From contig DGVS01000007.1 in NCBI GenBank assembly GCA_002395065.1, forward strand, positions 67,981 through 131,980: a stretch of DNA of 64,000 nt, given 5' to 3'. This DNA comes from Bacillales bacterium UBA4278. Lineage in GTDB: Bacteria; Bacillota_I; Bacilli_A; RFN20; CAG-826. Both the position numbers and the translations under genes were made by a program. Positions 7,919 to 29,474 of this stretch are shown here, piece after piece; position 1 is the first letter of the stretch; every line of letters begins with the position of its first letter. Below the pieces are notes generated by a model. It did not search any database. It was not told the DNA's origin and saw nothing but the letters and a program-made list of their open reading frames with translations.

Positions 7919-8341
7919 ATGTTAATTAATGAACTTGAACAAGTTAATATCGCCGCTTTAAAAGCCCATGACCAAGTCACTCGTGCTGTTTTAAGCGTCG
8001 TTATCAATCGTTACCGTATGAACGCGATTGAACTTAAATCGCAAGGCAAAGAAGCAACTGATGCTGATTTAATCAAAATTATTTCCAAAGTCATCAAAGA
8101 ACTTGACGAAGAAAAAGAAGGAAACATCAAGACTGGTCGAGTCGAAGCTGCTCAAGCAATCGACAAGCAAAAAACCGTCATTGAAAAGTATCTTCCAAAG
8201 ATGATGAGCGAAGACGAAATTCGTGCTGTCATTGCTAAACTTGAAGATAAATCAATCCCATCTGTGATGAAGCATTTCAAGGCCAATTATGATGGCCAAG
8301 CCGATATGGCTCTTGTGAGCAAAATTGCTCGTGGACAATAA
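7919..8341 (+). CDS. GatB/YqeY domain protein
   Basis: 140 aa; N-terminal ALKAHDQVTRAVL and EEKEGNIKTGRVE regions typical of the YqeY family. Confidence 0.75.
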   Translation: MLINELEQVNIAALKAHDQVTRAVLSVVINRYRMNAIELKSQGKEATDADLIKIISKVIKELDEEKEGNIKTGRVEAAQAIDKQKTVIEKYLPKMMSEDEIRAVIAKLEDKSIPSVMKHFKANYDGQADMALVSKIARGQ

Positions 8342-8357
8342 AAAGCAAAAACAGAAA

Positions 8358-8386
8358 GTTAACCGAGAATTGCTGGTTAATTTTTT
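8358..8386 (+). terminator. Terminator hairpin GTTAACC-loop-GGTTAAC + T-run; carries the dispersed 19-mer TTAACCGAGAATTGCTGGT
   Basis: Perfect 7-bp inverted repeat followed by TTTTTTG. Confidence 0.65.
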
Positions 8387-8416
8387 GTAAAAGTACCGCA
8401 AAACCCCAATATTTCT

Positions 8417-9481
8417 ATGAATAAAAAATCACGGTCAATTCTAGTAATTTCTCTAACATCGGTTGTTAGTTTAGCACTTGGTGTTTTTGGTTATATTTAT
8501 TTCTCTTTCCTCCATCATTACAAAGGTAAAACTGTTGTATGTGAATGGAATGAAACAGACACTTTTGACATTAACTCATTACCAACTGTTGAAGTGAAAA
8601 AAGGGCAAGATTTCAAGATCTTAAACTTTGCTGATATTCAACTTAGTGACACGGAAAATATGTTCAATATGAACCGCATCCACAAGGAAATGTCATACTT
8701 AGTTAAACAAACGAAACCAGATTTAATCACTTTAACCGGTGATCAAACATGGTTTAATGAAAACCGCACTTCGTTGCTTAGTGTCATCAACTGGTTGGAT
8801 AGCTTTAAAATTCCATACGCTCCAATTTTTGGAAACCATGATTTTGGAAATCCAGGTCATACAGCGGTGGCGACACCAAATTACTGCTGTGAGAAGTATG
8901 AGGATGGAAAATACTCTTTATTTAGAAGAGGCCCAACCAACATCGATTCATTAGGTAACTATGTTGTGCGTGTCGTTAAGGATAACCGAACATTTTCCTT
9001 ACTTTACATGGTTGACTCCGGGGTAAATGATCGAATCAACGATAAACAAATCTCCTATTTCAATTGGATTGCTCAAGGTGTTAAAGAACATGATGGAGAT
9101 TTCCCAAAGAAAAGCTATGCTTTCATGCATAAACCTCTTCCAGAATACATTGATGCTTATAAAGCCCATGAAAAAGGCTATCCATACACTGAAACACGTG
9201 GAGAAATGTATAACTATTATTACTTGGGAGGCAGTGAACAAAATGGATTCTTTAGCTTTGCTAAGTCAATTGGAATATCCGATATCGTTGCTGGACATCA
9301 ACATGGAAATTGTTTCTCTATTCGCTACCAAAATGTTTGGTTAACTTCCGCACTTAAAACCGGGGAATTTGGTGGATTTATTGATAAAGATGGTGTCTAT
9401 TTAAATGGAGCATCCTTATTTACATATAATGGCTTTGAATCTTCTTTAAAAAATATTTTCGTTACGAAAGGAAAATTCTAG
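8417..9481 (+). CDS. Membrane-anchored metallophosphoesterase (calcineurin-like)
   Basis: N-terminal TM; GDQ, GNHD, GHQH metallophosphatase motifs. Confidence 0.7.
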   Translation: MNKKSRSILVISLTSVVSLALGVFGYIYFSFLHHYKGKTVVCEWNETDTFDINSLPTVEVKKGQDFKILNFADIQLSDTENMFNMNRIHKEMSYLVKQTKPDLITLTGDQTWFNENRTSLLSVINWLDSFKIPYAPIFGNHDFGNPGHTAVATPNYCCEKYEDGKYSLFRRGPTNIDSLGNYVVRVVKDNRTFSLLYMVDSGVNDRINDKQISYFNWIAQGVKEHDGDFPKKSYAFMHKPLPEYIDAYKAHEKGYPYTETRGEMYNYYYLGGSEQNGFFSFAKSIGISDIVAGHQHGNCFSIRYQNVWLTSALKTGEFGGFIDKDGVYLNGASLFTYNGFESSLKNIFVTKGKF

Positions 9482-15444: not shown

Positions 15445-15564
15445 AAAAAAATATTTTAATTTTCTCTTACGAGCGCACGCTATTTTTCTTATAATGTATT
15501 TTCAATTACTAAAAGTTGTTTCTTGGTGATTGATAAAAGAGAAAAAATTTCCGGGTCTCTCACT

Positions 15565-18500
15565 ATGAAAACAAAACTCTCCCTCGTATTAGCCTCATTA
15601 GCGATGGCTTTTTCTGTTGGCGCAGGTGCTGCTTCCACAAATAAAAAAGTCGAGCAAGCGGAGGCTGCTACATATTCACAAACAGTTGACCAATATTATT
15701 CAACGTCTCAACAATCCGGGGATGCAGCTATTGATTGGAATCAAACTGGAGCAACATTAAAAACTTCTCTTTTTAAAAAAATTAAGATTACAACTGCTGG
15801 TTGGTCCTACGATGGTCTTTGGGAAGCATACAAAAAAACAGACGTTCGTCCTGATGGAACACATTTCTGGGATATCTATTCTGATTCCACAGATTACACA
15901 TTAAATGATAATAGAATTAATGCTTCTTATAAGAAAGAAGGCGATTCAATTAACCGTGAACACGTGATTCCTCAGTCCACATTTAATGAAGCTGCTCCAA
16001 TGAAGAGTGACATTCATCATGTTTTACCATCCGATGGTTACGTGAATAACCGTCGTTCAGCTTATCCGCACGGTATTGTTACTGGTTCACCAACTTACAC
16101 ATCAAACGATGGATGTAAATTAGGTTCGGGAACTGGTAGTACAACAGTTTTTGAACCAATGGATAACTACAAAGGCGATATTGCTCGTATCTATTTTTAC
16201 TTTGTAACTTGTTATCAAGACAAAATGTCGAGCAATTCTTTTAGTGCCTTCGATAAATCAACTCACCCATCAATTAAAACGGCTTATTTAAATGTCTACT
16301 TGCAATGGGCAAAGGATGACCCTGTTTCCCAAAAAGAAATTGATCGAAATAATGCCGCGTATGCTGGACAAGGTAATAGAAACCCATTCATTGATTGTCC
16401 ATATGCTGTTGGTGCGATTTGGGATTCAACCCATGCAACTGATTACGGTAACAAAGGCGAATATACATCAGGGACTGGTGTATCAATTAGCAAAACCTCT
16501 GCATCCATGATTAGTGGTGGAACAACAACCATTAGCGCCACATCAACAGAAGGCGGAACAATTAATTGGACAACATCCAATAGCAGCGTTGTTTCTTTAA
16601 GTTCATCCACATCATCTAGTGGAAACAGTATTACTTTAACTGCTGGATCAGCTGGTTCAGCAACAATCACTGCAAGTCAAACAATCAGTGGAACAACATA
16701 TTCAAAGACTTGTTCTGTTACTGTTTCAGCAACAAAACAAGTTACCTCAATTGCAATTAGTGGACAGAAAACGTCTTATGCAGTCGATGATACATTTGTT
16801 AAACCAACTGTAACTGCGACATATAATGACGGAACGCAAGCTACAGTTACTTCTGATGCAACATGCTCTGGCTACAATATGTCGATCGCTGGAAATTACA
16901 CAGTAACTGTTTCTTATAGTTATGGTGGAGCAACCAAAACTACAACATATGAAATTACCGTTTCTTCCTCTGGCGGAGGTTCAGGGGGTATTGATGATTA
17001 TACAATCTCAACAACTCCATTAACTTCTAGCGGAATCACAAACAATATGCTTGTTGTTTGGGGTACATCAACTTCTAATCTTGCAAGTAGTATTGGAAGT
17101 AACTGGGTGTATCTTTCTGCGGTTGGCGATGACACAATGATTTTTGTTGTCGAGGGAACATCAAGCGGCTTTAAATTAAAATATACCTCAGATAATACAT
17201 ATGTCGCATCATCTGGAGCAAAGAAAGTTGAATTAAATAGCACTGGAACCACATTTACTTTAAATAGCAATAAATGTGTTTATAATTCCACGTCTGGAGC
17301 TTTTGTTTATAACACAAGTGGTTTGCGACCATATGCTTCTGGTTCATATACTAATGCATATTTATATGCATTAACACCAAATAAAACTCTTTCTGAAATT
17401 GACGTTTACACATTCCCAACCAAAGTGTCGTACACCATTGGTGAATATTTTGACCCAACCGGACTAGTAATTACTAGAACATACTCTGATTCGTCATCCG
17501 ATACCTATTCTTATGCTGGACATACATCAGAGTTTACTTTTGATCCTTCAACTTCCACGCCTCTTGCGAGTGGAATGGAAACTGTAGAAGTTACATATGG
17601 TGGTCAATCTTGCTCCTTTGAAATTGAATTGACTGCCGCAAAAGAATTGTCATCTATTTCTATATCCGGATATACAACTGCTTTTGTAGAAGGTGATACA
17701 TTTGCCTTTGGCGGCACAGTTACTGCTCATTACGCTGATGCTTCAACAGAAAACGTTACAAGTACAGCTACATTTAGCGGTTATGATATGACAACAGTTG
17801 GCAATCAAACTGTTGCTGTCACTTATCAAGGCGAATCTGCAACATATCAAATTGCAGTTTCTGCAGGAACATTAAACTCGATTACTGTTAGCGGTCAGAC
17901 AACTACATATACAAAAAATGCTGCATTCTCCTTTGATGGAATATGTACAGCAACATTCGCGAATGGCTATCAAAAGGAAGTCACCCCAACCAGTGTTACT
18001 TCTCCCGATATGACAACAGCCGGAAACAAAACAATCATAGTTTCCTATACATATAACGGAAACACGAGAACAACCTCCTATGATATTTCTGTTAATTCAT
18101 ATCGAACAGTTATGGAAGAAAGCTATTCTCTTATTGGCACAATAAGCTATACTTCTGGTTCTGAAGTAGTTTCCGTTAATACCCTTTCAACAAGTAAGAG
18201 CGGATATACGAATATCGAGAATGGTCCTGACACCAGCAATAAAGCGATACGATTGGGCTCTGGAAGTAATAAAGGCACACTAACTATTACCTCAACCACA
18301 TCAAACATTCGCAAAATTGTTGTAAATGCTCGTACCTACAACACTGACTCACCAGTTAATATGACAATTGGTGGTACATCAAATTCTTTAACAACGAGCT
18401 ATGCTGATTACACAAAGGAATATACAACTGCAACTAATTCATGTGCCATTGCAACAACCACAAATGGAAAACGCGCATGGATTAAATCTGTTACAGTTTA

Positions 18501-18915
18501 TACATATTCATCTCAAGATATTGGGCAAACCGAAGATTGTGTTGGCTTAGAAACATTCATTAACACTTATATGCACATGGATTACACTGAAAACCTCGGC
18601 TATTGCAGTGATAGTGAACATCATTATTATTCAACCGCTAAAGAGGCGTTCAATGGATTGAATTCACATCAACGTTCATTATTTACTGGTAACTCCGCCT
18701 ATACTACTGAATGGACTAGATTATCTACTTGGGCTTCTAAAAACGGAGATTCATTAAATAACAGTAATCAATTAGCTGCTGGAGCAAATCCAAACCCAGT
18801 TTCAATCATCGTTGGAAATAGTGGTAATATCGTTGCAATTATCACTGTGGTTGCATTGATCTCAGCTGCTTCAATTGGTGGATACTTCTTTCTAAAGAAG
18901 CGTAAAGAATTCTAA
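15565..18915 (+). CDS. Surface-anchored extracellular nuclease: signal peptide, endonuclease-I family domain, multiple Big_2 (Ig-like) domains, C-terminal TM anchor
   Basis: Endonuclease_1 motifs EHVIPQS, DIHHVLPSDGYVNNRRS, NRNPFID; repeated about 80-aa Ig-like modules; C-terminal IVAIITVVALISAASIGGYFFLKKRK. Start at ATG 15565 assumed. Confidence 0.75.
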   Translation: MKTKLSLVLASLAMAFSVGAGAASTNKKVEQAEAATYSQTVDQYYSTSQQSGDAAIDWNQTGATLKTSLFKKIKITTAGWSYDGLWEAYKKTDVRPDGTHFWDIYSDSTDYTLNDNRINASYKKEGDSINREHVIPQSTFNEAAPMKSDIHHVLPSDGYVNNRRSAYPHGIVTGSPTYTSNDGCKLGSGTGSTTVFEPMDNYKGDIARIYFYFVTCYQDKMSSNSFSAFDKSTHPSIKTAYLNVYLQWAKDDPVSQKEIDRNNAAYAGQGNRNPFIDCPYAVGAIWDSTHATDYGNKGEYTSGTGVSISKTSASMISGGTTTISATSTEGGTINWTTSNSSVVSLSSSTSSSGNSITLTAGSAGSATITASQTISGTTYSKTCSVTVSATKQVTSIAISGQKTSYAVDDTFVKPTVTATYNDGTQATVTSDATCSGYNMSIAGNYTVTVSYSYGGATKTTTYEITVSSSGGGSGGIDDYTISTTPLTSSGITNNMLVVWGTSTSNLASSIGSNWVYLSAVGDDTMIFVVEGTSSGFKLKYTSDNTYVASSGAKKVELNSTGTTFTLNSNKCVYNSTSGAFVYNTSGLRPYASGSYTNAYLYALTPNKTLSEIDVYTFPTKVSYTIGEYFDPTGLVITRTYSDSSSDTYSYAGHTSEFTFDPSTSTPLASGMETVEVTYGGQSCSFEIELTAAKELSSISISGYTTAFVEGDTFAFGGTVTAHYADASTENVTSTATFSGYDMTTVGNQTVAVTYQGESATYQIAVSAGTLNSITVSGQTTTYTKNAAFSFDGICTATFANGYQKEVTPTSVTSPDMTTAGNKTIIVSYTYNGNTRTTSYDISVNSYRTVMEESYSLIGTISYTSGSEVVSVNTLSTSKSGYTNIENGPDTSNKAIRLGSGSNKGTLTITSTTSNIRKIVVNARTYNTDSPVNMTIGGTSNSLTTSYADYTKEYTTATNSCAIATTTNGKRAWIKSVTVYTYSSQDIGQTEDCVGLETFINTYMHMDYTENLGYCSDSEHHYYSTAKEAFNGLNSHQRSLFTGNSAYTTEWTRLSTWASKNGDSLNNSNQLAAGANPNPVSIIVGNSGNIVAIITVVALISAASIGGYFFLKKRKEF

Positions 18916-18932
18916 TCAGTGTATGGATAATT

Positions 18933-18965
18933 AAAAAATCTCGTTAAAAATGGCGAGATTTTTTG
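18933..18965 (+). terminator. Terminator AAAAAATCTCG-loop-CGAGATTTTTTG
   Basis: Hairpin + T-run; near-identical copy at 19646-19680. Confidence 0.65.
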
Positions 18966-19050
18966 TTTCAAATTTTTCCATTTAGTATTGAATTATGGTA
19001 TAAAAATGGTATAATAAAGCCAGATTGAAGATGGAGAAACTGAAAGGAAA

Positions 19051-19332
19051 ATGAGTATGATACAAGCATTACCAAAGGTATTACCAGTAAATGAACTGAA
19101 GAATACCGCCAATATTATGAAGGTATGCCAAGAAACTGAAGGCCCTATTGTTATCACTAAAAATGGTTATGGAGCGGCTGTTATGATGAGCATTAAAGTT
19201 TATGAAGAAATGTTTGTTAAAATGAGAGCCGCAGCATTAATTAATGAAAGCCTTGATGATATTGACAATGGTGGTGAATTAATTGATGGCGAAAAATTCT
19301 TTAGTGAAATAAAAAGAAAACATGGAAGATAA
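19051..19332 (+). CDS. Type II antitoxin, Phd/YefM family
   Basis: 93 aa; VITKNGYGAAVMMSIKVYEEM core typical of Phd/YefM; overlaps the downstream toxin ORF. Confidence 0.8.
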   Translation: MSMIQALPKVLPVNELKNTANIMKVCQETEGPIVITKNGYGAAVMMSIKVYEEMFVKMRAAALINESLDDIDNGGELIDGEKFFSEIKRKHGR

Positions 19333-19632
19333 ATATTCATTTGTTATTTCACAACGTGCTAGAACTGATTTGGAAAACATTTATCAGTACATTTCAGAAG
19401 TTTTGTTAAACCCGAAAGCAGCAGATGATTTAATGGATCATTTTTCAAATCTTTTAAAAACATTTGCTCTTTCCCATATAGTTGTGAAGCAATTAACAAT
19501 GAATTTGTCAAAGATCATTCCATAAGAAAATTGTTGGTTAATAACTACATTGCTTTTTACCGAGTTAAAGATAAGCAAATTCAAATAGTTCGAATTCTAT
19601 TTGGCATGAGTGATTATCAAAAATTATTATAA
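19322..19632 (+). pseudogene. ParE/RelE-family toxin, frameshifted (T3 run at about 19469-19471; a T4 run would restore ...LLKTFALFPYSCEAINNEF...IAFYRVKDKQIQIVRILFGMSDYQKLL)
   Basis: ORF track stops at 19525, but the -1 frame continues with the conserved ParE C-terminus to the TAA at 19630-19632. Confidence 0.7.
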
Positions 19633-19645
19633 ATTGCTGGTTAAT

Positions 19646-19680
19646 TAAAAAATCTCGTCAATTCGGCGAGATTTTTTGTA
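19646..19680 (+). terminator. Terminator AAAAAATCTCG-loop-CGAGATTTTTTG (second copy)
   Basis: Same stem as 18933-18965 with a different loop. Confidence 0.65.
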
Positions 19681-19704
19681 TTTAACCAAGAATTGCTGGA
19701 TATT

Positions 19705-20565
19705 TTAAATCTTTAGATCAACAGTTTCAGAGATGTAATAGTGATAATTATATTCATCACAATACTCTTGGATTTCTTTCTTTAAAGTGTTGTTTTTTGT
19801 GTACTCAATAAAGAGAACATCTCCATAATATCTCATGAATTTAACAACACTAATGAGATACTCTTTTTCTTTTGCTATTTGTCTAGAGAAGACATTGTTT
19901 TCATAATCATCAATCTTGGAGAAGATACATTCTTGAGCATACGCTTTAATCTTTGATAATTCAGGACGATTTTCGTCTTTCATTCTTTCAAGAAAATCAG
20001 TTCCTGAATTAATCATGAGTTTCATTCCAGTGGAACTAAGATCATTTAGCATCTTCAAACAACCTTGATAGATGTCTTCTTTATTAATGTCGCTTCCTTG
20101 ATAGACTTCGGACACAATATAGTAAACATCAAAGTTATCCATAAAGATTCCATCTGCACCAAGATCTTTAAGTCTATTAGCTTCGCTTAGGATATGTTCT
20201 TGCCAGAAAGAGTTAGATACATCAACCCACCTTTCATCTGGCCAGTTTTCATAATCCATAAATGTTAAATCTTTATACGTTTCATAATATGAACGATATT
20301 TCTCTAGTGATCCAACCGATAAATAAGCATAAATAAAGCAATCACTTTGTTTAAGTGTAGAAATAGCGTTCGTATTAAAGCTATCTAAATCAATCGCGAC
20401 ATTTGGATAGTTCTTAATTTTATTAACACTACTTGAATCACATCCAAGAAAAACTCCATATTTTAGTGGAGCGGTGTATTCCCCTTTGGATGTTTTCTTT
20501 TTTGAAGAATTACATCCAGATAAAGAAAGCGCTAATAACGGAATTAAAAACAGAAGTTTTTTCAT
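19705..20565 (-). CDS. Lipoprotein, GH114-like (TM1410/PelA-hydrolase-like TIM-barrel) putative glycoside hydrolase
   Basis: Lipobox LSLSGC; YAYLSVGSLEKYRSYY, WVDVSNSFWQEHIL, LGADGIFMDNFDVY resemble GH114 conserved blocks (recalled, not searched). Confidence 0.5.
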   Translation of the reverse strand: MKKLLFLIPLLALSLSGCNSSKKKTSKGEYTAPLKYGVFLGCDSSSVNKIKNYPNVAIDLDSFNTNAISTLKQSDCFIYAYLSVGSLEKYRSYYETYKDLTFMDYENWPDERWVDVSNSFWQEHILSEANRLKDLGADGIFMDNFDVYYIVSEVYQGSDINKEDIYQGCLKMLNDLSSTGMKLMINSGTDFLERMKDENRPELSKIKAYAQECIFSKIDDYENNVFSRQIAKEKEYLISVVKFMRYYGDVLFIEYTKNNTLKKEIQEYCDEYNYHYYISETVDLKI

Positions 20566-20692
20566 GCGCCTATATTCTACACACTCGCATAAAAGTGTCC
20601 CACGAAAAATTTTTATATTTCAATGAAATATCTTTTTAATGAATGAAAAATTTGGTCATTTTTTACGAATAGAGATATTAAAAGCTTTTTGA

Positions 20693-21067
20693 GTGAAAGG
20701 AGAAACTAGTATGAAAAAGAAATCAAAACATGCCCCATTAAGAAGAAGGCACGAATTTAGATACCATAAAGTTCCGGTAGTTTTAGATAGTGGACATATT
20801 TTTAATATTAAGCATCCGGCATATATCTTTTTAGAAAAAGGAAATATCTTTATTTATGTGTCTTTAACCCACTCTAAAAAAGTAGGAGAAAATATTGTTA
20901 TAGAACTTAAGAAAAATCCTAATTCAAAAGACCAATCAAAATCATATTGGATTGTTGAATTTAAAGAAGATACAAAAAATCGCTTCGGAAGAAAGCTTCC
21001 TGATTGGAAAATCGATAAGTTTGATGATTTGAATATTTTAAATGAATATAAAAAAAGCAAGGAATAA
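20693..21067 (+). CDS. Hypothetical small basic protein
   Basis: GGAG RBS; 124 aa, K/R-rich N-terminus; no family recognised. Confidence 0.4.
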   Translation: MKGETSMKKKSKHAPLRRRHEFRYHKVPVVLDSGHIFNIKHPAYIFLEKGNIFIYVSLTHSKKVGENIVIELKKNPNSKDQSKSYWIVEFKEDTKNRFGRKLPDWKIDKFDDLNILNEYKKSKE

Positions 21068-21107
21068 GTCCTTGCAATAGGTTTTTATCCTTTTTAAACC
21101 CAATTTA

Positions 21108-21260
21108 TTTCGTTGATGCGGTGTACCTTCACCATAAGGAGCATCATGCTTTTCGTTGGCCCCAATAGGTATGACCAACGAACAGGCGATTCTGTCACCT
21201 CGAACTTATTTCGGCTTATTGACACAGGAATACTAGTTCCAACAAATCGCCCGGTTCATA
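21108..21260. other. GC-rich (about 47% vs about 25-30% flanks) non-coding patch with nested inverted repeats; candidate structured RNA or relic att/integration site
   Basis: CGTTGG..CCAACG, GGCGAT..ATCGCC, GGTG..CACC, CGAA..TTCG dyads; no plausible ORF on either strand. Confidence 0.25.
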
Positions 21261-21450
21261 TTAAAGCAAACACTATTTTCTTTGTAAAGAACTTATTTTA
21301 AAAGATTATGTCATCGTTTCGAACTGGTATTGATATCAAAACTTATCTTATTAGATTAAAAAATATTTTGCTTAAATTAATATTATTATTCTACCAAGTA
21401 TATATATCTACCAATTAATAATATTAATTAAAGCAACATATATCCCCCTC

Positions 21451-21481
21451 TTGACAGATATATTACCCCTTGTGCTTAAAT
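21451..21481 (+). promoter_or_regulatory. Putative promoter (TTGACA ... TTAAAT) in an extremely AT-rich tract upstream of the RhuM-like gene
   Basis: TTGACA at 21451-21456; -10-like element 18-19 nt downstream. Confidence 0.3.
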
Positions 21482-21509
21482 GCGTGTTAAATCAATAAAG
21501 GAGAACAAT

Positions 21510-22385
21510 ATGGAAAATTTAGAAATTGTAAAATTCAATAATGGAGACTTTGAATTAGATGTCAAAGTGTCTCCGAACGAAGATACCGTCTGGCTTTCTA
21601 AAGAACAAATGGGTTTGCTATTTGATCGTGATAGAAGCGTTATTTCTAGACATATCAAACACATTTTCATGGAAAAGGAATTAGATGAAAAAAGCAACGT
21701 GCATTTTTTGCACATTGCCGTTTCTGACAAACCAGTTCCATTTTATAGCTTAGATGTCATTATTTCTGTCGGTTATCGTGTCCACTCTAAAAAAGGTGTT
21801 ATTTTTCGCAAGTGGGCGAATCGCATTTTAAAAGATTATTTGATTAAAGGTTATGTTGTTAATCCGAAAAAGATTGAGATAACGGTGGACGATTGGAATG
21901 CGTTAAACACCCAAGTGAAATATCTTGAAAATAAAATCGAAAAAATCGAAGAAAACATTTCAAAACGTGAAATATCAGACCAACTTTTCTTTGAAGGCGA
22001 ATTTTATAATGCTGCAAATTATCTAAGTGGAATATTAAAAAGTGCGAAACAAAGTGTTGCAATCATCGATCCATATTTTGATGCTATTGCGATGGAATAC
22101 TTAAAATACATTAAAAATGGAATACGCATTGAAATATTTACATCAATCGAGAAGTTAATTAATGATTTCGAAGTTCAAAAATTTCGAAAGCAAAACTCAA
22201 ACTTTAAGGTGTTTATTACGCATTCTTTTCACGATCGATTCATTATTATTGACCAAACAAAATGTTATCAAATTGGAACATCTTTAAATTCTTTAGGAAA
22301 CAAAACATTTGGTGTTACACAAATAAAAGATGCCGAATATATCGACATCCTTCAAAATCGAGTCAATCAAAGCAAAATAGCTTAA
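21510..22385 (+). CDS. RhuM-family N-terminal domain protein fused to a C-terminal domain with a PLD/HKD-like signature
   Basis: AAGGAGA RBS before ATG 21510. N-terminus VWLSKEQMGLLFDRDRSVISRHIKHIFMEKELDE...SLDVIISVGYRVHSKKGVIFRKWANRILKDYLIKGY matches the RhuM family. Coiled-coil linker, then C-terminus HDRFIIID-x7-GTSLN (H-x-R-x4-D...G-T-S-x-N). Confidence 0.6.
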   Translation: MENLEIVKFNNGDFELDVKVSPNEDTVWLSKEQMGLLFDRDRSVISRHIKHIFMEKELDEKSNVHFLHIAVSDKPVPFYSLDVIISVGYRVHSKKGVIFRKWANRILKDYLIKGYVVNPKKIEITVDDWNALNTQVKYLENKIEKIEENISKREISDQLFFEGEFYNAANYLSGILKSAKQSVAIIDPYFDAIAMEYLKYIKNGIRIEIFTSIEKLINDFEVQKFRKQNSNFKVFITHSFHDRFIIIDQTKCYQIGTSLNSLGNKTFGVTQIKDAEYIDILQNRVNQSKIA

Positions 22386-23272
22386 TTTTTCTCGAGTTTT
22401 CTTTCTGCGTATATCACGCATTCATTTGCACACACAATCATCAAAATAGTGAGAATCGCTCCCATTGAGACATCGCTTAAGAAGTGTGCACCAACAAGAA
22501 TTCTAGAGAATGAAACAAGAATGACCCACACAAATGATCCATAAAGCAATGGAAGTTGAATCTTGTCTTGTCCTTTTACGAAGTAAGGAACAAGTAATGC
22601 AAACATAATCGTAAGTGCGCTTCCACCAGCGTGTCCGCTTGGGAAAGATTTAAATTCTTCACTAGTTAATCCAGTTAGAGACATCAAATCCTTATAGTTT
22701 TTACATGGCTGATACCAGTTATGGAAATCAATGGCTTCATATAATGTTAGACTTCTATATCTTGGGCGGTGGAAGATACTTTTTAAAAGAGTTACTCCTG
22801 GAACAAGCGCCATAAAAATAAAGAAGGCACTGATTAATAAAATAATCCAAATTCCTTTTCGATCCGTTTTGTTAAACAAGTAATATCCAAGATAAGTCAT
22901 CCCAGATGCAAATGGAACAACAATTATGTATCCAACCCATTTTATAGATGGATTATAAAATCCGTTTGCTCCAAAGAACTCTCTTCCAGCGAAGAAGATG
23001 TTTAATCCAAAACAGGCCACACATAGAACAATAAAAACAACATTGTATCCAATCTTATATTGCTTTTTTAAGGCAATAGATAAGAAGCCTCCTCCAATAA
23101 AGGAGAGCAATAAGTATCCTGGAAGTGTTCCAATGGAGGAAACAAATAATCCAAAGGCGTTGTCTCGAGAAAAGATTGCTTGTGAGACTTGTTCATCAAA
23201 AAACGTACCAAGAACAAAAGTAATTACAAAGAATCCAAGAATAATGTATAGATTTAGACGTAATTTTTTCAT
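22382..23272 (-). CDS. PAP2-family membrane phosphatase
   Basis: PSGHAGGS and SRILVGAHFLSDV PAP2 motifs; multi-TM. Confidence 0.8.
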   Translation of the reverse strand: MKKLRLNLYIILGFFVITFVLGTFFDEQVSQAIFSRDNAFGLFVSSIGTLPGYLLLSFIGGGFLSIALKKQYKIGYNVVFIVLCVACFGLNIFFAGREFFGANGFYNPSIKWVGYIIVVPFASGMTYLGYYLFNKTDRKGIWIILLISAFFIFMALVPGVTLLKSIFHRPRYRSLTLYEAIDFHNWYQPCKNYKDLMSLTGLTSEEFKSFPSGHAGGSALTIMFALLVPYFVKGQDKIQLPLLYGSFVWVILVSFSRILVGAHFLSDVSMGAILTILMIVCANECVIYAERKLEKN

Positions 23273-23577
23273 TTCAAAAACCTATCTTTCGAAAATATTT
23301 TAAAAAAAATTTTTCATCTAATAAAGAATCTTCTCTTTTTGTGAATTTTCAATTAACAACATTCTAAAGAATCATTCGAATCAATCGACACAAAAAGTGA
23401 AGAGTCTGTGTTCAATAAATATATATTATTTAATCTTTTTTGCACCACTAACATGTTAGTTGTCTAAACAATTAACAAATTCTTCTTACTTGTGATATGA
23501 GCGCTAGTGTATAATCAATAATACACTTGTTAATGTGAGAGTGTATACACACACATTACCTTAAGGAAACCACTACT

Positions 23578-26500
23578 ATGAAAAACCTATTCAAAACAAG
23601 AAGAACAAAAATCTATCTTGGCATTATTGCAAGTGCTGTCTTTGCAGTAACAATTGCTTTATTTGCCAATTTCAAACCATCTTTATTTAGAAATGCATCC
23701 GCTGCCAATGATTACACAATTACATTTAATCGTAATAACGGTGGTGCCGGTTTCCCTTCTTCATATGGTAGTGGCACAAATAGTAGTGGTCATACAAGCA
23801 GAGGCAATCAAATCTCTTTCACATATAACAATGCAAAATCAACCTCCGGCAAGTTCTGTACTTTAGCTAATGGAGGTTATTTATATAACTTAACAGCCAT
23901 TACTGGATTAGAATCAGTGGAGATCGGATTTAGTGGTGGTTCACTTTCTTTATATTCCAGTAAATCTACGACATTTGATGGTGATGCTGAGTCATTAACT
24001 ACTGAATCAGCTTTATCAATCGCTGCCAACTATGACTATTTTAAGCTAGTTGCTAGCGGTGAAACTGCTATTGAATACATTAAAGTTTTCTATACTTGTT
24101 CTGCTCGTGAAGAACAATCATATTATGTGAAGGTTAATGAAACCTCACAAGTAACAAGTGGCCAATATTTGATTGTCTATGAGAGCGGAAGTGTTGCTTT
24201 AAATCTTCAAACTGAAGAAGATGTGGCAAATAACGGTACATCGGTTACTATTGTCGAAGACAAGATCGAGTCTACATCGGCAACAGATGTTTTAGCATTT
24301 ACTTTAGATGATACTAATGGATCTCTATTGGCTCCTTGTGGAAAATACATTACTCACACTGGATCTAAAAATACATTGAATTTCTCTGATTCTGCTGTTG
24401 GACACGATATTTCCGTTGAAGACGGTGTCGCAAACATTGAAGTTACATCTCAAAGTTATCATATTGCTTATAACAACAATACTGATCAAAAGCGATTTAG
24501 ATATTACCTGAATTCTGCTGCTAATGTCGCGTTATTTAAATTGAATGGTGAATCCGGCGGAGGCACTGTAGTAACAAACTATACCATTACCTATATGAGC
24601 AATGGTGGTACTGGAACAATGGAACCTACAAGTGGCACCAATCCAGTTGTTGCTTCATGTTCATTCACTGCACCATCTGGTCAAGAATTCTCTAAATGGA
24701 ATACAGCTGCAAATGGCAGCGGAACCGATGTCGCTGTTGGCACAGCCTTAAGTGCTGATACTACCTTATATGCTATTTGGGAGGCTTCTTCCTCTGGAGG
24801 TAGTTCAACATTCGAACTTTTCTCTGGAACAATTGAAGAAGGCGATTACATTATTACCTATGATGACTGTGCAATGAATACTACAGTAACATCGACACGT
24901 TTACAATATTATTCTGTCACACCTGTCAATGACGTGATTACTGACCCAAGTGATGATATTATCTGGCACATTGCCAAAAGCGGTAATTACTGGACTCTTT
25001 ATAACGAAGAAGTTGAAGCTTATGTTGCTTCAACTGGTGCAAAAAACAAAGCACAAATGCTTGAAGATGGTACAGATGATAAATCTTTATGGTCAATTAC
25101 TGGTTCTGAAACTTATGAGTTTGTTAATAAACAAAACGCAAGCAGTGGTGTTAATGCAAATTTAAGAAAAAATGGAACATACGGATTTGCATGTTATTCT
25201 TCGAGTACAGGTGGCGAATTAACTCTGTACAAATCTGTAGAAGCCACTCCACAAGGACCAATCTCGGTGAGCGGTGTTTCACTTAACCATGTTTCGGCAG
25301 AGATTACCAATGAAACTGGAATTCAACTTTCTGCCACAATTTCTCCAAACAATGCTACGAACCAAAATGTATCTTGGTCATCAGATAAACCCGGTATCGC
25401 TTCTGTTGATCAGTCTGGAAATGTTACAGGTGTTTCTGCTGGCACAGCCATTATTACTGTAACAACCGAAGATGGCAATAAGACCGCCACTTGTGAAGTG
25501 ACGGTTACGATGATTGTTCACGTTACAGGCGTGTCTTTAGATCATACATCTTTAGATTTGCATCCAGGTGAACAAGACAGTTTAACAGCAACCGTTTCGC
25601 CGTCAAATGCAAGCAATAAGAATGTTACGTGGTCGACAAATGCATCTAGTGTTGCAACCGTTAATAACGGAACTGTTACTGCAGTTTCCGCTGGTACGGC
25701 AACAATTACCATCACAACTGTTGATGGAAGCAAAACGGCTCAGTGCACCGTGACTGTAACAAATATCGCCGTTACTGGTATTTCATTAAATAAAAATTCA
25801 TTAACACTTGATCGTCCAGGATCAGAGACATTAACTGCAACAATTGCCCCTTCAAATGCATCGAATAAAAATGTTAATTGGAGCTCCGGAAATACAAATG
25901 TTGCTACAGTCAGTGGTGGCACAGTTACTGCTGTTGGCACAGGTACAACAATCATTACCGCAACATCTGCTGCTGACAATACAAAATATGCAACTTGTAC
26001 TGTTACAGTTAACCCTGTGAATGTTTCAAGCGTTTCATTGAATAAAAATGCTTTAAGTTTAGGTGTTGGCGCCAAAGAAACATTAACAGCAACTGTGTCT
26101 CCTTCAAATGCAGATAATACCAATATTAATTGGTCGACAAGTGATTCTGGTGTAGCTACCGTTACTAACGGAGAGGTTACAGGTGTTGCAGCTGGTACCG
26201 CAACTATTACCGCTACATCAGCAGCTGATAGCTCCAAGAAAGCCACATGTACTGTTACCGTCACAAGTCAAAGTCCTGTTTCATCCTATACAATAGAATT
26301 TAAGGTTGGAACTGGTGACGGAAGTACGTTGTCAGATACTACCGAAAACTCGACTTACATCGAATCTGGTTCGGAATACGTCAATAGTATTTCTTATGCT
26401 AATAAGGTGTATGGCCCCGGATCTTATGGATTAAAACTCGGTGCTTCTAGTAGTGCTGGTTCACTTACGCTTTCTATTGATAGCACAGAAGTTTCAACAA

Positions 26501-28149
26501 TTGTTGTTAACGCTAAGTTATATCGTTCAGATAAATCTGCTACATTGGATGTAAATTCAACCGGCGCTCAAAGTGTTGGTTCATCATTCACTGACTACAC
26601 ATATACCATTGATGACACAATTACTTCTATTACCCTCGGATCAACAAAATATATTTGGATTTCTGGCGTGACTGTGAATATCAAGAATTCAACACCTATA
26701 AATCCAACATCCATCTCGATTGATCCATCAAGCCTTGAATTAGGAAAAGGTGGAAACAGAAACTTAATTGTTAATTACACCCCATCAAATGCTAACCAAA
26801 ATAAGGAAGTTACCTGGACTCGTTATAGTGGTAGTTCTAATATTTCTGTTGATCAGAATGGTTTGGTTACCGTTTCTTCAAATGCTTCAGTTGGAAATAG
26901 CGCGGTAATTCGTGCAACATTAACTAATTTAACAAGCATTTATGCACAGTGCACAGTTACTGTCACAGATGTACAAAAAGCTAAATACACAGTTCTCTTG
27001 TATCTCTGTGGATCAACCCTTGAATATGGTAAGAATAATTCTGGAAACTATCAACTTTGGGGTTCCGCAACCGATGATATGAGAGAGATTCTCAACGCGT
27101 CTGGAACATACAAAAGTGATGTCAACATTGTTGTTGAAACAGGCGGCTCGAAGAAATGGGAAACTACCTATGGCGTTTCTAAGGACAAATTAGAGGTCCG
27201 ACATGTCTCTGGAAGTTCTTATGTTAAGGATTCTCCAAGTACTATTACTACTCAAGCAAACATGGGTGAAGCATCAACGCTTCAGACATTCCTTGAATAC
27301 GGTTTAACAACTTATCCAGCCGATAAGACAGCTTTGATTCTTTGGGATCACGGCGGTGCTATGACAGGTGTTTGTTGTGATGATAACTATAGTATGGAAT
27401 GTTTGACAGCGGCTGAAGTCAAATCTGCCGTTAGCGGAGCCCTATCTAATTGTGGAATGTCTGGACAAAAACTTGAATGGATTGGTTACGATGCATGTTT
27501 AATGGGTGTTGCTGATATTGCGTCAATCAACTCTGATTACTTTAATTACATGGTTGCATCTCAAGAATCAGAACCTGGTGATGGTTGGGATTATACAACT
27601 TGGGTTTCTAGCCTGTATAACAATCCAACTAATACAAGAACAGTCCTTGATAGTATTACAACTAGTTACCGAGCACAGTATGTTGGTGGAACATACACAA
27701 ATGATGCTACACTTGCAGCTTATGATTTATCATGTATGTCAGCTTTTACAACTGCTTTCGAGAATTTTGCTTCTCATGTAAGTGGAAGTTGGTCTGGCTT
27801 AACGACAGCTTATGATAATTCGCTTAAGTTTGGCATCGATGATGATAATGATTATATGTACGGTATTGCTGATATGAAGAGCTTTATAAATAATGCTAAT
27901 ACTCAAATTAATGGAATATCTACATATACCTCAGCTGTGTTAACAGCATTAAATAATCTCGTTATTTACAATAAATACTGCACAGCTTATACAAGTTCTA
28001 CTGGTTATCCGTGTGGTGTTTGTGTGTTCATAGCTCATCTTGATAACAGTTACAAACCTTATACAAGAAAAGCTGAATACACGACAAACGATACGAAATT
28101 TACTACATGGAGAAATATTAATATCAGTAATGGTTCTTGGGGATCATAA
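23578..28149 (+). CDS. Giant N-terminally anchored surface protein: tandem Big_2 Ig-like repeats and C-terminal clostripain-like (peptidase C11) domain
   Basis: N-terminal TM/signal; four or more near-identical about 80-aa Big_2 repeats. C-terminus YTVLLYLCGSTLEYG ... ILWDHGGAMTG (His) ... IGYDACLMG (Cys) matches C11 catalytic dyad blocks. Confidence 0.8.
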   Translation: MKNLFKTRRTKIYLGIIASAVFAVTIALFANFKPSLFRNASAANDYTITFNRNNGGAGFPSSYGSGTNSSGHTSRGNQISFTYNNAKSTSGKFCTLANGGYLYNLTAITGLESVEIGFSGGSLSLYSSKSTTFDGDAESLTTESALSIAANYDYFKLVASGETAIEYIKVFYTCSAREEQSYYVKVNETSQVTSGQYLIVYESGSVALNLQTEEDVANNGTSVTIVEDKIESTSATDVLAFTLDDTNGSLLAPCGKYITHTGSKNTLNFSDSAVGHDISVEDGVANIEVTSQSYHIAYNNNTDQKRFRYYLNSAANVALFKLNGESGGGTVVTNYTITYMSNGGTGTMEPTSGTNPVVASCSFTAPSGQEFSKWNTAANGSGTDVAVGTALSADTTLYAIWEASSSGGSSTFELFSGTIEEGDYIITYDDCAMNTTVTSTRLQYYSVTPVNDVITDPSDDIIWHIAKSGNYWTLYNEEVEAYVASTGAKNKAQMLEDGTDDKSLWSITGSETYEFVNKQNASSGVNANLRKNGTYGFACYSSSTGGELTLYKSVEATPQGPISVSGVSLNHVSAEITNETGIQLSATISPNNATNQNVSWSSDKPGIASVDQSGNVTGVSAGTAIITVTTEDGNKTATCEVTVTMIVHVTGVSLDHTSLDLHPGEQDSLTATVSPSNASNKNVTWSTNASSVATVNNGTVTAVSAGTATITITTVDGSKTAQCTVTVTNIAVTGISLNKNSLTLDRPGSETLTATIAPSNASNKNVNWSSGNTNVATVSGGTVTAVGTGTTIITATSAADNTKYATCTVTVNPVNVSSVSLNKNALSLGVGAKETLTATVSPSNADNTNINWSTSDSGVATVTNGEVTGVAAGTATITATSAADSSKKATCTVTVTSQSPVSSYTIEFKVGTGDGSTLSDTTENSTYIESGSEYVNSISYANKVYGPGSYGLKLGASSSAGSLTLSIDSTEVSTIVVNAKLYRSDKSATLDVNSTGAQSVGSSFTDYTYTIDDTITSITLGSTKYIWISGVTVNIKNSTPINPTSISIDPSSLELGKGGNRNLIVNYTPSNANQNKEVTWTRYSGSSNISVDQNGLVTVSSNASVGNSAVIRATLTNLTSIYAQCTVTVTDVQKAKYTVLLYLCGSTLEYGKNNSGNYQLWGSATDDMREILNASGTYKSDVNIVVETGGSKKWETTYGVSKDKLEVRHVSGSSYVKDSPSTITTQANMGEASTLQTFLEYGLTTYPADKTALILWDHGGAMTGVCCDDNYSMECLTAAEVKSAVSGALSNCGMSGQKLEWIGYDACLMGVADIASINSDYFNYMVASQESEPGDGWDYTTWVSSLYNNPTNTRTVLDSITTSYRAQYVGGTYTNDATLAAYDLSCMSAFTTAFENFASHVSGSWSGLTTAYDNSLKFGIDDDNDYMYGIADMKSFINNANTQINGISTYTSAVLTALNNLVIYNKYCTAYTSSTGYPCGVCVFIAHLDNSYKPYTRKAEYTTNDTKFTTWRNINISNGSWGS
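25260..26280 (+). repeat. Tandem about 240-bp intragenic repeats encoding Big_2 modules
   Basis: Repeated ...TATVSPSNASNKNV.WS...VATV..GTVTAVSAGTATIT...CTVTVT units; generate spurious antisense ORFs 25542-26264. Confidence 0.7.
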
Positions 28150-28628: not shown

Positions 28629-29474
28629 CTAATACCCCATGTCATGTTTATATTGATGTGGGGTTTTATATTGCAATGCATATGCTGGACGTTCGTGATT
28701 GAACCAATGTATGTATGCCTTGATAAACTTGTTTATATCATCACAATGTTTCAAATCAAAATCATAAAACATCTCATCTTTCATCCAACCGTTAATTGAT
28801 TCCATAATTGGATTATCTGTTGGAGTTCCTACTCGAGACATTGAATGTTTCATGTTAATATTAGTTAGAAGCTCATTATAGCTTCTGGAAGAATAAACCG
28901 AACCTTGGTCTGCGTGAAGAATGGTAACCTGGTCAGTTTGTTCTTTTTTAATTAGTTTTATTACTTCTTTAAGTCCATCGTGATATGTTCTTGGATCGCC
29001 CTCTCTAGAACTAAGCCCGTAAGATACTATTTCGTTATTGAATGTATCCAAATGTAACGTTAATTCGTGACGATTCCCTTTGTAATGGAATATGGTCATA
29101 TCTGACACAATGATTTCATACGGTTTAGATGCATTCCAATTCCCACAAATAAGGTTTGTGAATCCTAGTTTTTCCTCTTTGGGTCTTTTCCATTTAATCC
29201 TAGGAGCTTCTGATTTAATTCCTGCATATTTGCAACATACATGAACATAATTTGGTTTTAATATGAGTCCGTATTTTTGCTTTAAATAAGCTGAGATCCA
29301 TCGATATCCATGGGTTTTATGTTTGTTATGAACCTCTTGAATAATCTTAAGATTATCTTCCCTTCTTTTTACCCATTCTGGCTTATTAACCCGTCTTTGT
29401 TTCCATTTATAATATACGCTCCTATTAACACCCATAATTGAACATAGAAATTTAACCGGATATTTATTTGACAA
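28629..29474 (-). CDS. IS3-family transposase OrfB (DDE integrase core)
   Basis: KYPVKFLCSIMGVNRSVYYKW N-terminal region; DDE-type core with HADQGSVY and downstream E. Confidence 0.8.
   Translation of the reverse strand: MSNKYPVKFLCSIMGVNRSVYYKWKQRRVNKPEWVKRREDNLKIIQEVHNKHKTHGYRWISAYLKQKYGLILKPNYVHVCCKYAGIKSEAPRIKWKRPKEEKLGFTNLICGNWNASKPYEIIVSDMTIFHYKGNRHELTLHLDTFNNEIVSYGLSSREGDPRTYHDGLKEVIKLIKKEQTDQVTILHADQGSVYSSRSYNELLTNINMKHSMSRVGTPTDNPIMESINGWMKDEMFYDFDLKHCDDINKFIKAYIHWFNHERPAYALQYKTPHQYKHDMGY

Follow-up and report, generated by a model that had tools for sequence, protein, structure and literature searches.

Does a RhuM-family gene carrying a phospholipase D (PLD)-like C-terminal domain encode a nuclease directed against invading DNA, or a protein of another kind? 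The question is raised by the gene here called RhuM-PLD, which lies on the + strand at positions 21510–22385 of a 64,000-nucleotide stretch of Bacillales bacterium UBA4278 (contig DGVS01000007.1), hereafter the window. An earlier note on this DNA had described a RhuM-type N-domain joined through a coiled coil to a PLD-like domain with Arg in place of the catalytic Lys, and had suggested a defence or addiction nuclease within a small accessory islet. In our analysis the three-part architecture of RhuM head, long helix and PLD-fold C-domain is near certain and a role in conflict or defence is rather probable, while the mechanism that we favour, taken as a whole, stands at about an even chance: a single-protein, DNA-targeted, dimeric PLD-type nuclease acting in defence against phages or mobile elements. 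The gene adds one more member to a candidate-defence family that has already been catalogued; it is not a new kind of system.

Gene and architecture of the protein

An open reading frame (ORF) spans 21480–22385 on the + strand, and its true start is the ATG at 21510, because this codon is preceded, 6 nt upstream, by a ribosome-binding site AAAGGAG (21497–21503) kept in all relatives, while the ATG at 21480 is not conserved. The resulting coding sequence of 291 aa is matched by Pfam, NCBIfam and PADLOC models and evolves under purifying selection, with a ratio of non-synonymous to synonymous divergence (omega) of 0.09–0.23 against four orthologues. An AlphaFold2 model of the full protein, built on 44 homologues (mean pLDDT, the score of the predicted local distance difference test, 83.9), shows a RhuM-core N-domain, a predicted 27-residue helix and a C-terminal PLD-fold domain, with low confidence in the linker between the N-domain and the helix.

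The N-domain (residues 1–115; 21510–21854) is recognised by Pfam PF13310, Virulence_RhuM, over residues 74–147 (67.1 bits against a gathering cut-off of 33.7, E 1.9e-18) and by the PADLOC N-terminal models of PDC-S05 and PDC-S23, the RhuM-type PADLOC models covering residues 1–150. The Pfam match extends over model positions 19–85 of 252 only, so that membership is based on about a quarter of the model; since nothing beyond these positions was matched, the C-terminal motif described below is not part of canonical RhuM proteins. Modelled by itself (pLDDT 86.8), the N-domain runs through three strands, a helix-turn-helix (HTH), a beta-hairpin "wing" and two helices. Searches of the PDB by sequence gave nothing significant with the N-domain profile and no match with the full protein. 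The order of secondary structure, together with what is published on heads of the RhuM, ORF6N, Bro-N and KilA-N types, suggests that the N-domain binds DNA.

The long helix (residues 126–152; 21885–21965) was read from the secondary structure of the AlphaFold2 model and is a presumed coiled-coil dimerisation element. Whole-chain Foldseek alignments place it as the coiled coil of the regulators TrmB and TrmBL2, and by this predicted arrangement the helix would make the protein a homodimer.

The C-terminal domain and its His-x-Arg motif

The C-domain (residues 155–291; 21972–22382) is modelled at a pLDDT of about 90 or higher as a PLD fold of a His-x-Arg type. Foldseek against the PDB retrieved NucT (2e-6), mouse Zucchini (2.6e-6) and Nuc (7.8e-5), all with probability 1.00, and the target-normalised template-modelling score for these nucleases with a single HKD motif per chain (Nuc as 1byr) was 0.55–0.65; further matches were PLD1–4, vaccinia F13, FAM83, MITD1 and TrmB. 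Profile searches found the fold weakly. A precomputed PF13091 match is present on one 74%-identical homologue, and NCBIfam VPA1262_N_dom matched residues 146–265 at 2.4e-15, below its cut-off.

The motif SFHDRFIIIDQTKCYQIGTSLNS was confirmed in the protein as H241-D-R243-F-I-I-I-D248 ... G256-T-S258-L-N260 (22230–22289, + strand), the codon of H241 being at nt 22230. It aligns with H94, K96 and D101 of Nuc and, although the match of the C-domain profile to Nuc is weak (E 0.033), the register is exact, with "sfHDRfliiD" lying on "iqHDKVIIVD". The motif is no product of chance: residues H241, D242, R243, D248, G256 and S258 are invariant among 44 full-length homologues and, together with D187, about 99% conserved across 153 diverse domains that sit on different N-terminal partners. 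HDR was found in 116 of the 120 best matches, the other four being truncated sequences. The G-S-x-N element is present as G256-T-S258-L-N260, its G and S being 99% conserved, whereas family members have either N or K at the last position. A family-specific motif, D187-P-Y189-F-D191 (22068–22082, + strand), lies where the first strand of the fold ends; in it D187 is conserved at 99% and Y189 at 97% of the 153 domains; that it might, for example, substitute for the Glu of classical HKD enzymes is speculation. The RhuM-type head, the coiled coil and the PLD-like domain with Arg for Lys, all three proposed from the letters of the DNA, are thus borne out.

An exchangeable cassette in the N-domain

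Residues 29–80 (21594–21749, + strand), which hold the HTH and the wing, form a hypervariable cassette that is swapped between orthologues. Between the window and the related genome L001 (protein 86% identical), the cassette is 33% identical and the remainder of the protein 94–95%. The cassette of L001 is in turn 100% identical to that of L101, their C-domains being 72% identical, and between L101 and L103 the cassette is 40% identical against 93–97% elsewhere. At least three cassette types recur, also in more distant homologues. Divergence of the protein is therefore mosaic, as read from these alignments, with cassette exchange in the presumed recognition surface.

The protein evolves at about three times the rate of its neighbours. 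In the comparisons with L101 and L103, synonymous divergence (dS) is 1.57–1.59 and non-synonymous divergence (dN) 0.18, compared with 0.47–0.50 and 0.06 for the downstream PAP2 phosphatase gene. Cassette exchange combined with this rate, at an omega of 0.1–0.2, is conflict-type evolution.

An ultraconserved element upstream of the gene

A non-coding element of about 100 nt (21356–21456), ending in a −35-like TTGACA (21451–21456), is a candidate operator or regulatory element. It is identical but for one base in the window, in L001 (7850–7950) and in the relatives L100, L101 and L104; the coding DNA around it is saturated at synonymous sites, with an adjacent coding dS of 0.4–1.8. Within it lies an inverted repeat (21363–21441) made of two 26-nt arms (21363–21388 and 21416–21441) that are 92% complementary, with a 27-nt spacer containing two CTACCAA repeats; folded as RNA it gives z = −4.35. 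The element occurs once in the window, an exact-match scan of metagenome contigs did not find it, and Rfam, run on 18800–23700, returned no RNA family, so that neither this element nor the GC-rich patch described below is a known RNA. Because the element is unchanged where the cassette changes, it is unlikely to be read by the variable cassette. The palindrome was considered as an allele-specific autoregulatory operator and rejected on the same observation.

In the window, L001, L100 and L101, TTGACA is followed by 13 nt (21457–21469) of sequence GATATATT(A/C)CCC(C/T); L103 and L104 have AGGGGAATATATG there, a near reverse complement, as if a short segment had been inverted. A weak candidate for an extended −10 (TGTGCTTAAAT, 21471–21481, + strand), read from the sequence, lies 19 nt past TTGACA; a consensus promoter scan gave no match for it, and in a sigma-70 scan promoter-like sites were no more frequent than in shuffled sequence. 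The strongly AT-rich upstream tract that had been pointed out before is real: the 200 nt at 21300–21499 have 24% guanine plus cytosine (GC) and fall in the lowest 0.5% of the 200-nt segments of the window (overall GC 36.6%).

Size and distribution of the family

At least 8000 homologues were found, and the best 120 have nearly all the same architecture at 283–300 aa. Out of 1.84 billion cluster representatives, a profile of the C-domain retrieved 7079 with E-values of 1e-3 or better; in these the domain is joined to RhuM cores or to ORF6N domains, singly or in pairs, to Bro-N plus RhuM, to HEAT repeats or to short N-termini. In forms of about 405–435 aa (P0020, P0022, P0028, P0040, P0053 and the gene at 8084–9319 of locus L013) two tandem RhuM N-domains precede the coiled coil and the PLD-like domain, and at one locus genes for 299 and 411 aa lie in tandem. 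RefSeq names these proteins "RhuM family protein" or "ORF6N domain-containing protein", and one Burkholderia copy of VPA1262 type "phospholipase D family protein"; an Azospirillum protein named for a VPA1262 family N-terminal domain reads IVDPYF ... VHDRFLVID ... GNSLN.

The architecture was found in Bacilli (Erysipelotrichaceae, Acholeplasmatales), Bacteroidota, Spirochaetota, Ignavibacteria and others, and also on conjugative and Bacteroidales plasmids, including p5482 of B. thetaiotaomicron, where an intact copy (L099) adjoins a serine recombinase and a Fic protein. On widespread Bacteroides and Parabacteroides plasmids of about 98–139 kb (H17–H30) the copy is frameshifted, unannotated and in two pieces; these split copies are probably pseudogenes. 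A phage origin of the gene was considered and rejected: PHROGs gave no match, and the phage records hold three full-length copies, all on unannotated faecal contigs.

Association with defence genes elsewhere

PDLC04879, one of the PADLOC models for the phage-defence candidate PDC-S05, matches the protein over its full length (E 2.1e-71, residues 3–280 on model positions 4–280 of 285). One PDC-S05 RhuM protein, from a cold-seep genome, lowered the plating of T7 and T5 in E. coli about 1000-fold. Anantharaman et al. (2013) noted that RhuM genes occur in restriction-modification (R-M) operons, frequently as fusions with DOC, and suggested that they act as toxins in multilayer R-M loci; a 2023 survey found RhuM genes enriched beside invertible type I R-M loci. 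A 2026 preprint reports that VPA1262 ("Juno") proteins bring plaque numbers down by a factor of more than 100 for T4, lambda-vir and two BASEL phages, and offers no mechanism.

Our own survey, drawn from about 75 genome loci, covered 59 neighbours lying on the same strand at a distance of up to 150 nt. HsdM and HsdS each account for 5 of the 59, and RhuM-PLD genes were seen between hsdM and hsdS; ORF6N proteins and RhuM proteins account for 6 each, and XRE-type HTH proteins for 11, five of them fused to GNAT and two to a hexapeptide acetyltransferase. In Bacilli (L003–L005, L006, L009, L011–L012, L018–L021, L031, L035) a gene of this XRE-HTH-GNAT or hexapeptide type often directly adjoins RhuM-PLD, overlapping it or leaving a gap of 2–4 nt, and the two may form a two-gene unit there; no such gene occurs in the window. 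An EcoRI-type methylase and a GmrSD-HNH gene lie near RhuM-PLD at one locus, MNT-HEPN, SIR2 and a tandem second RhuM gene at another, and on a Parabacteroides plasmid it stands beside AbiEii/DUF6088, SLOG-PRTase and a serine recombinase; some loci have ordinary housekeeping surroundings. At the level of the family, RhuM-PLD is associated with defence genes.

The locus in this genome

In the window the gene is surrounded by a secreted protein of Endonuclease_1/Big_3 type, a Phd/YefM antitoxin whose toxin is frameshifted, a GH114 lipoprotein, an orphan gene of 118 aa, a PAP2 phosphatase and a large clostripain surface protein. The PAP2 gene is downstream and convergent, its stop overlapping the end of RhuM-PLD. 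Farther away in the window lie proteases, an Opp transporter, glgB and a transposase of IS3 type. The order GH114, RhuM-PLD, PAP2, clostripain is common to L001 and to L100, L101, L103 and L104, whose proteins are 74–75% identical to that of the window. The toxin-antitoxin (TA) cassette is absent from L001, and L100 additionally lacks the orphan gene.

These comparisons correct part of the earlier picture. Of the proposed accessory islet, the Phd/YefM antitoxin, the 40%-GC patch and the orphan gene exist, but the toxin is frameshifted and RhuM-PLD itself, present at the same locus in at least five genomes, is no recent accessory insertion. A local context typical of defence, also claimed, is contradicted by neighbours that are secreted hydrolases, a PAP2 phosphatase and transporters, and by synteny in relatives; the defence role that had been derived from it stands at the level of the family, on the PDC-S05 model, the one tested PDC-S05 protein, the embedding in type I R-M loci and the domain shared with Juno, and fails on the local context. 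The addiction module falls as well, there being no adjacent cognate partner: downstream lies the convergent PAP2 gene, and the upstream orphan gene, considered as a partner and rejected, is absent from L100 and does not occur near 80 other RhuM-PLD genes.

In the TA cassette (19051–19632) the Phd/YefM antitoxin is followed by a ParE/RelE-like toxin that is frameshifted near 19500–19525, its C-terminal part being read in a different frame as far as 19632. On either side of the cassette, at 18936–18966 and 19649–19680, stands a copy of a hairpin that resembles a terminator (AAAAAATCTCG..GGCGAGATTTTTTGT). The orphan gene (20711–21067), which has no Pfam, PHROG or plasmid match, is followed by the non-coding 40%-GC patch (21070–21300), for which no plasmid match was found and which is poorly conserved against L001; a hairpin at 21057–21075 resembles a terminator of the orphan gene. 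Both are present in L001 and neither in L100, and they are therefore an insertion beside RhuM-PLD; most simply, the patch is decayed DNA that arrived with the orphan gene. Two very large secreted proteins flank the locus, one with Endonuclease_1 and Big_3 repeats (15523–18915) and one with clostripain C11 and Big_2 repeats (23578–28149), the middle of the latter gene being far more diverged from L001 than its ends. The IS3-type transposase (rve, rve_2, rve_3) lies at 28629–29474 on the − strand, where L001 carries a PIN_3 toxin pair.

Proposed mechanism and alternative explanations

In the mechanism that we favour, the N-domain would bind nucleic acid, the HTH-plus-wing cassette setting the target. 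The helix would dimerise the chain and bring two half-sites together into one composite active site, as in Nuc, BfiI and Zucchini, which work as dimers; there the bound nucleic acid would have its phosphodiester bonds cut with no metal cofactor. Expression would come from the gene's own promoter behind the ultraconserved palindromic element, which would probably be bound by some separate regulator and not by the variable cassette of the protein itself. The presumed nuclease activity finds support in the invariance of the motif residues H, D, R, D, G and S, which non-catalytic proteins of the PLD fold do not have.

Several observations weigh against this mechanism. The Pfam model PLDc_2 matched below threshold (22.2 bits against 27, E 1.3e-4, residues 175–257), the strict HxK form of the motif is absent, the canonical Lys being Arg in 153 of 153 aligned domains, and no conserved residues correspond to the Asn-x-Glu found after GSxN in classical HKD enzymes. 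Lys-to-Arg is the standard catalytically inactive mutant of PLD2 and, given this, phosphodiesterase activity should not be assumed from the motif. The N-domain gave no significant fold match in Foldseek against the PDB (best E 0.2 or worse, the weak matches at E ≥ 0.2 being winged-helix MarR/SlyA, ParB and APSES-like), so that the label "winged helix" reflects the order of secondary structure only and DNA binding by the N-domain itself is what we infer. The best whole-chain Foldseek matches are TrmBL2 and TrmB (1e-7), regulators with a non-catalytic PLD-like domain. As to defence, the PDC-S05 protein that protects against phages is a PDC-S05 member of unstated C-domain type, the 64-kb window contains no defence island and no partner gene for self-protection, and RhuM-PLD, because the same locus is occupied in at least five related genomes, is a stable, vertically kept resident of its clade and not a recent insertion.

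The chief rival starts from the TrmB likeness and sees in RhuM-PLD a DNA-binding regulator or nucleoid-associated xenogeneic silencer whose PLD-like domain binds a phosphate ligand or oligomerises, without catalysis. That TrmBL2 and TrmB head the Foldseek list over about 270 aligned columns in the same order of parts, together with a weak profile match (E 0.067), fits such a protein, and so do the Arg that inactivates classical PLD, the presence of the non-catalytic FAM83, MITD1 and TrmB among the fold matches, and the stable synteny and conserved palindromic upstream element, which are typical of regulated or regulatory genes. Yet the His, Asp, Ser and Gly of catalytic type are invariant, unlike in pseudo-enzymes of this fold; the palindrome stays constant while the HTH-wing cassette changes fully, which does not suit an allele-specific autoregulatory operator; and conflict functions are suggested both by the loci where the gene sits between hsdM and hsdS and by the domain that it has in common with Juno. 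Neither Pfam TrmB nor Regulator_TrmB matched, even at E up to 10. We regard a regulator of this kind as conceivable and, on balance, rather improbable.

A toxin or abortive-infection effector, in which a phage cue, be it DNA or protein, would be sensed by the N-domain and the PLD-like domain would attack the host chromosome, RNA or membrane phospholipid and so kill the cell or arrest it, would accord with the RhuM toxins proposed for multilayer R-M loci, often fused to DOC (Anantharaman et al., 2013), and true phospholipases do exist among PLD-fold enzymes. The XRE-HTH genes that adjoin RhuM-PLD in other genomes, some of them fused to GNAT or hexapeptide acetyltransferases, are possible regulators or antidotes, but no such gene adjoins it in the window and the upstream orphan is not linked to it elsewhere; moreover, the protein lacks any membrane-targeting feature, and a variable recognition cassette suits nucleic-acid targeting more than lipid hydrolysis. 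A toxin therefore seems unlikely to us. As for a decaying or functionless remnant of a mobile element, of which the frameshifted copies on several Bacteroidales plasmids and the frameshifted neighbouring toxin might be reminders, the intact frame, the low omega against the four orthologues, the invariant motifs and the conserved ribosome-binding site and promoter region leave it extremely improbable, and a dead remnant is excluded for practical purposes.

Going beyond the DNA-targeted nuclease that we favour for this one protein, a wider proposal is put forward tentatively, as a possibility that we would not rely on: RhuM-PLD, its siblings with ORF6N and Bro-N heads and Juno would share an unrecognised catalytic variant of PLD, with Arg plus D187 for Lys plus Glu, and would act as modular, methylase-independent restriction-like nucleases whose target is reset by swapping an HTH-wing cassette of 50 residues between strains, the 100-nt element being a shared control switch.

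Significance

RhuM-family genes are among the commonest unexplained passengers of R-M operons and are listed only as "candidate" defence genes. The invariant His-x-Arg PLD-fold domain, which occurs also in Juno, provides a concrete effector hypothesis for thousands of proteins (7079 representatives), and the exchangeable cassette and the ultraconserved element are handles on target recognition by these proteins and on the way in which they are silenced. Should the His-x-Arg site prove catalytic, the accepted chemistry of the PLD superfamily would widen; should it not, the family would be a bacterial counterpart of the TrmB layout. In the literature searched we found no paper describing the RhuM-PLD fusion, the His-x-Arg clade or the presence of that clade in Juno, and the reading at the level of domains, the cassette exchange and the ultraconserved element ahead of the gene all appear undescribed so far.

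Comparison with known systems

Canonical RhuM proteins (PF13310, PDC-S05) have the same N-terminal core and likewise occur singly, whether between hsdM and hsdS, on islands or on plasmids; here, on the contrary, the C-terminal two thirds of the PF13310 model are replaced by the coiled coil and the PLD-fold domain. The match from the RhuM region of Salmonella carries the annotation of a Fic-family toxin, and fusions of RhuM with DOC are described in the literature. Proteins headed by ORF6N or Bro-N have the identical C-domain and coiled-coil layout and differ in the head domain, their heads belonging to the KilA-N/Bro-N/ORF6N group of phage-type DNA-binding domains.

With the single-HKD nucleases (Nuc 1byr, NucT, Zucchini, BfiI type) RhuM-PLD shares the fold, one half-site per chain, and the His, Asp and G-x-S-x-N in register with Nuc; unlike them, every member has Arg for Lys, no conserved Asn-x-Glu and an extra invariant D187. 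In BfiI one PLD dimer is coupled to DNA-binding domains. The order of domains in RhuM-PLD is the reverse of that in BfiI.

TrmB and TrmBL2 give the best whole-chain structural match and share the layout of DNA-binding head, coiled-coil helix and PLD-like domain, but there is no significant sequence relation (PDB profile E 0.067), so that the likeness is one of fold and layout only. By profile alignment TrmBL2 has no motif His, no Lys or other basic residue and no Ser at the motif positions, the head of RhuM-PLD is of RhuM type and not a TrmB winged helix, and the taxa and genomic contexts of these archaeal regulators differ from those of RhuM-PLD. Juno (VPA1262) has the His-x-Arg PLD-like domain in common with RhuM-PLD (NCBIfam VPA1262_N_dom 2.4e-15, tblastn 1e-6) but is about 1000 aa long, lacks a RhuM core and differs from it in the regions at both termini. 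RhuM-PLD stays below both NCBIfam cut-offs (NF040700, 56.3 against 80; NF040699, 17.1 against 325) and is a member of neither the Juno/VPA1262 nor the TrmB family, while sharing with the former its His-x-Arg domain and with the latter its layout.

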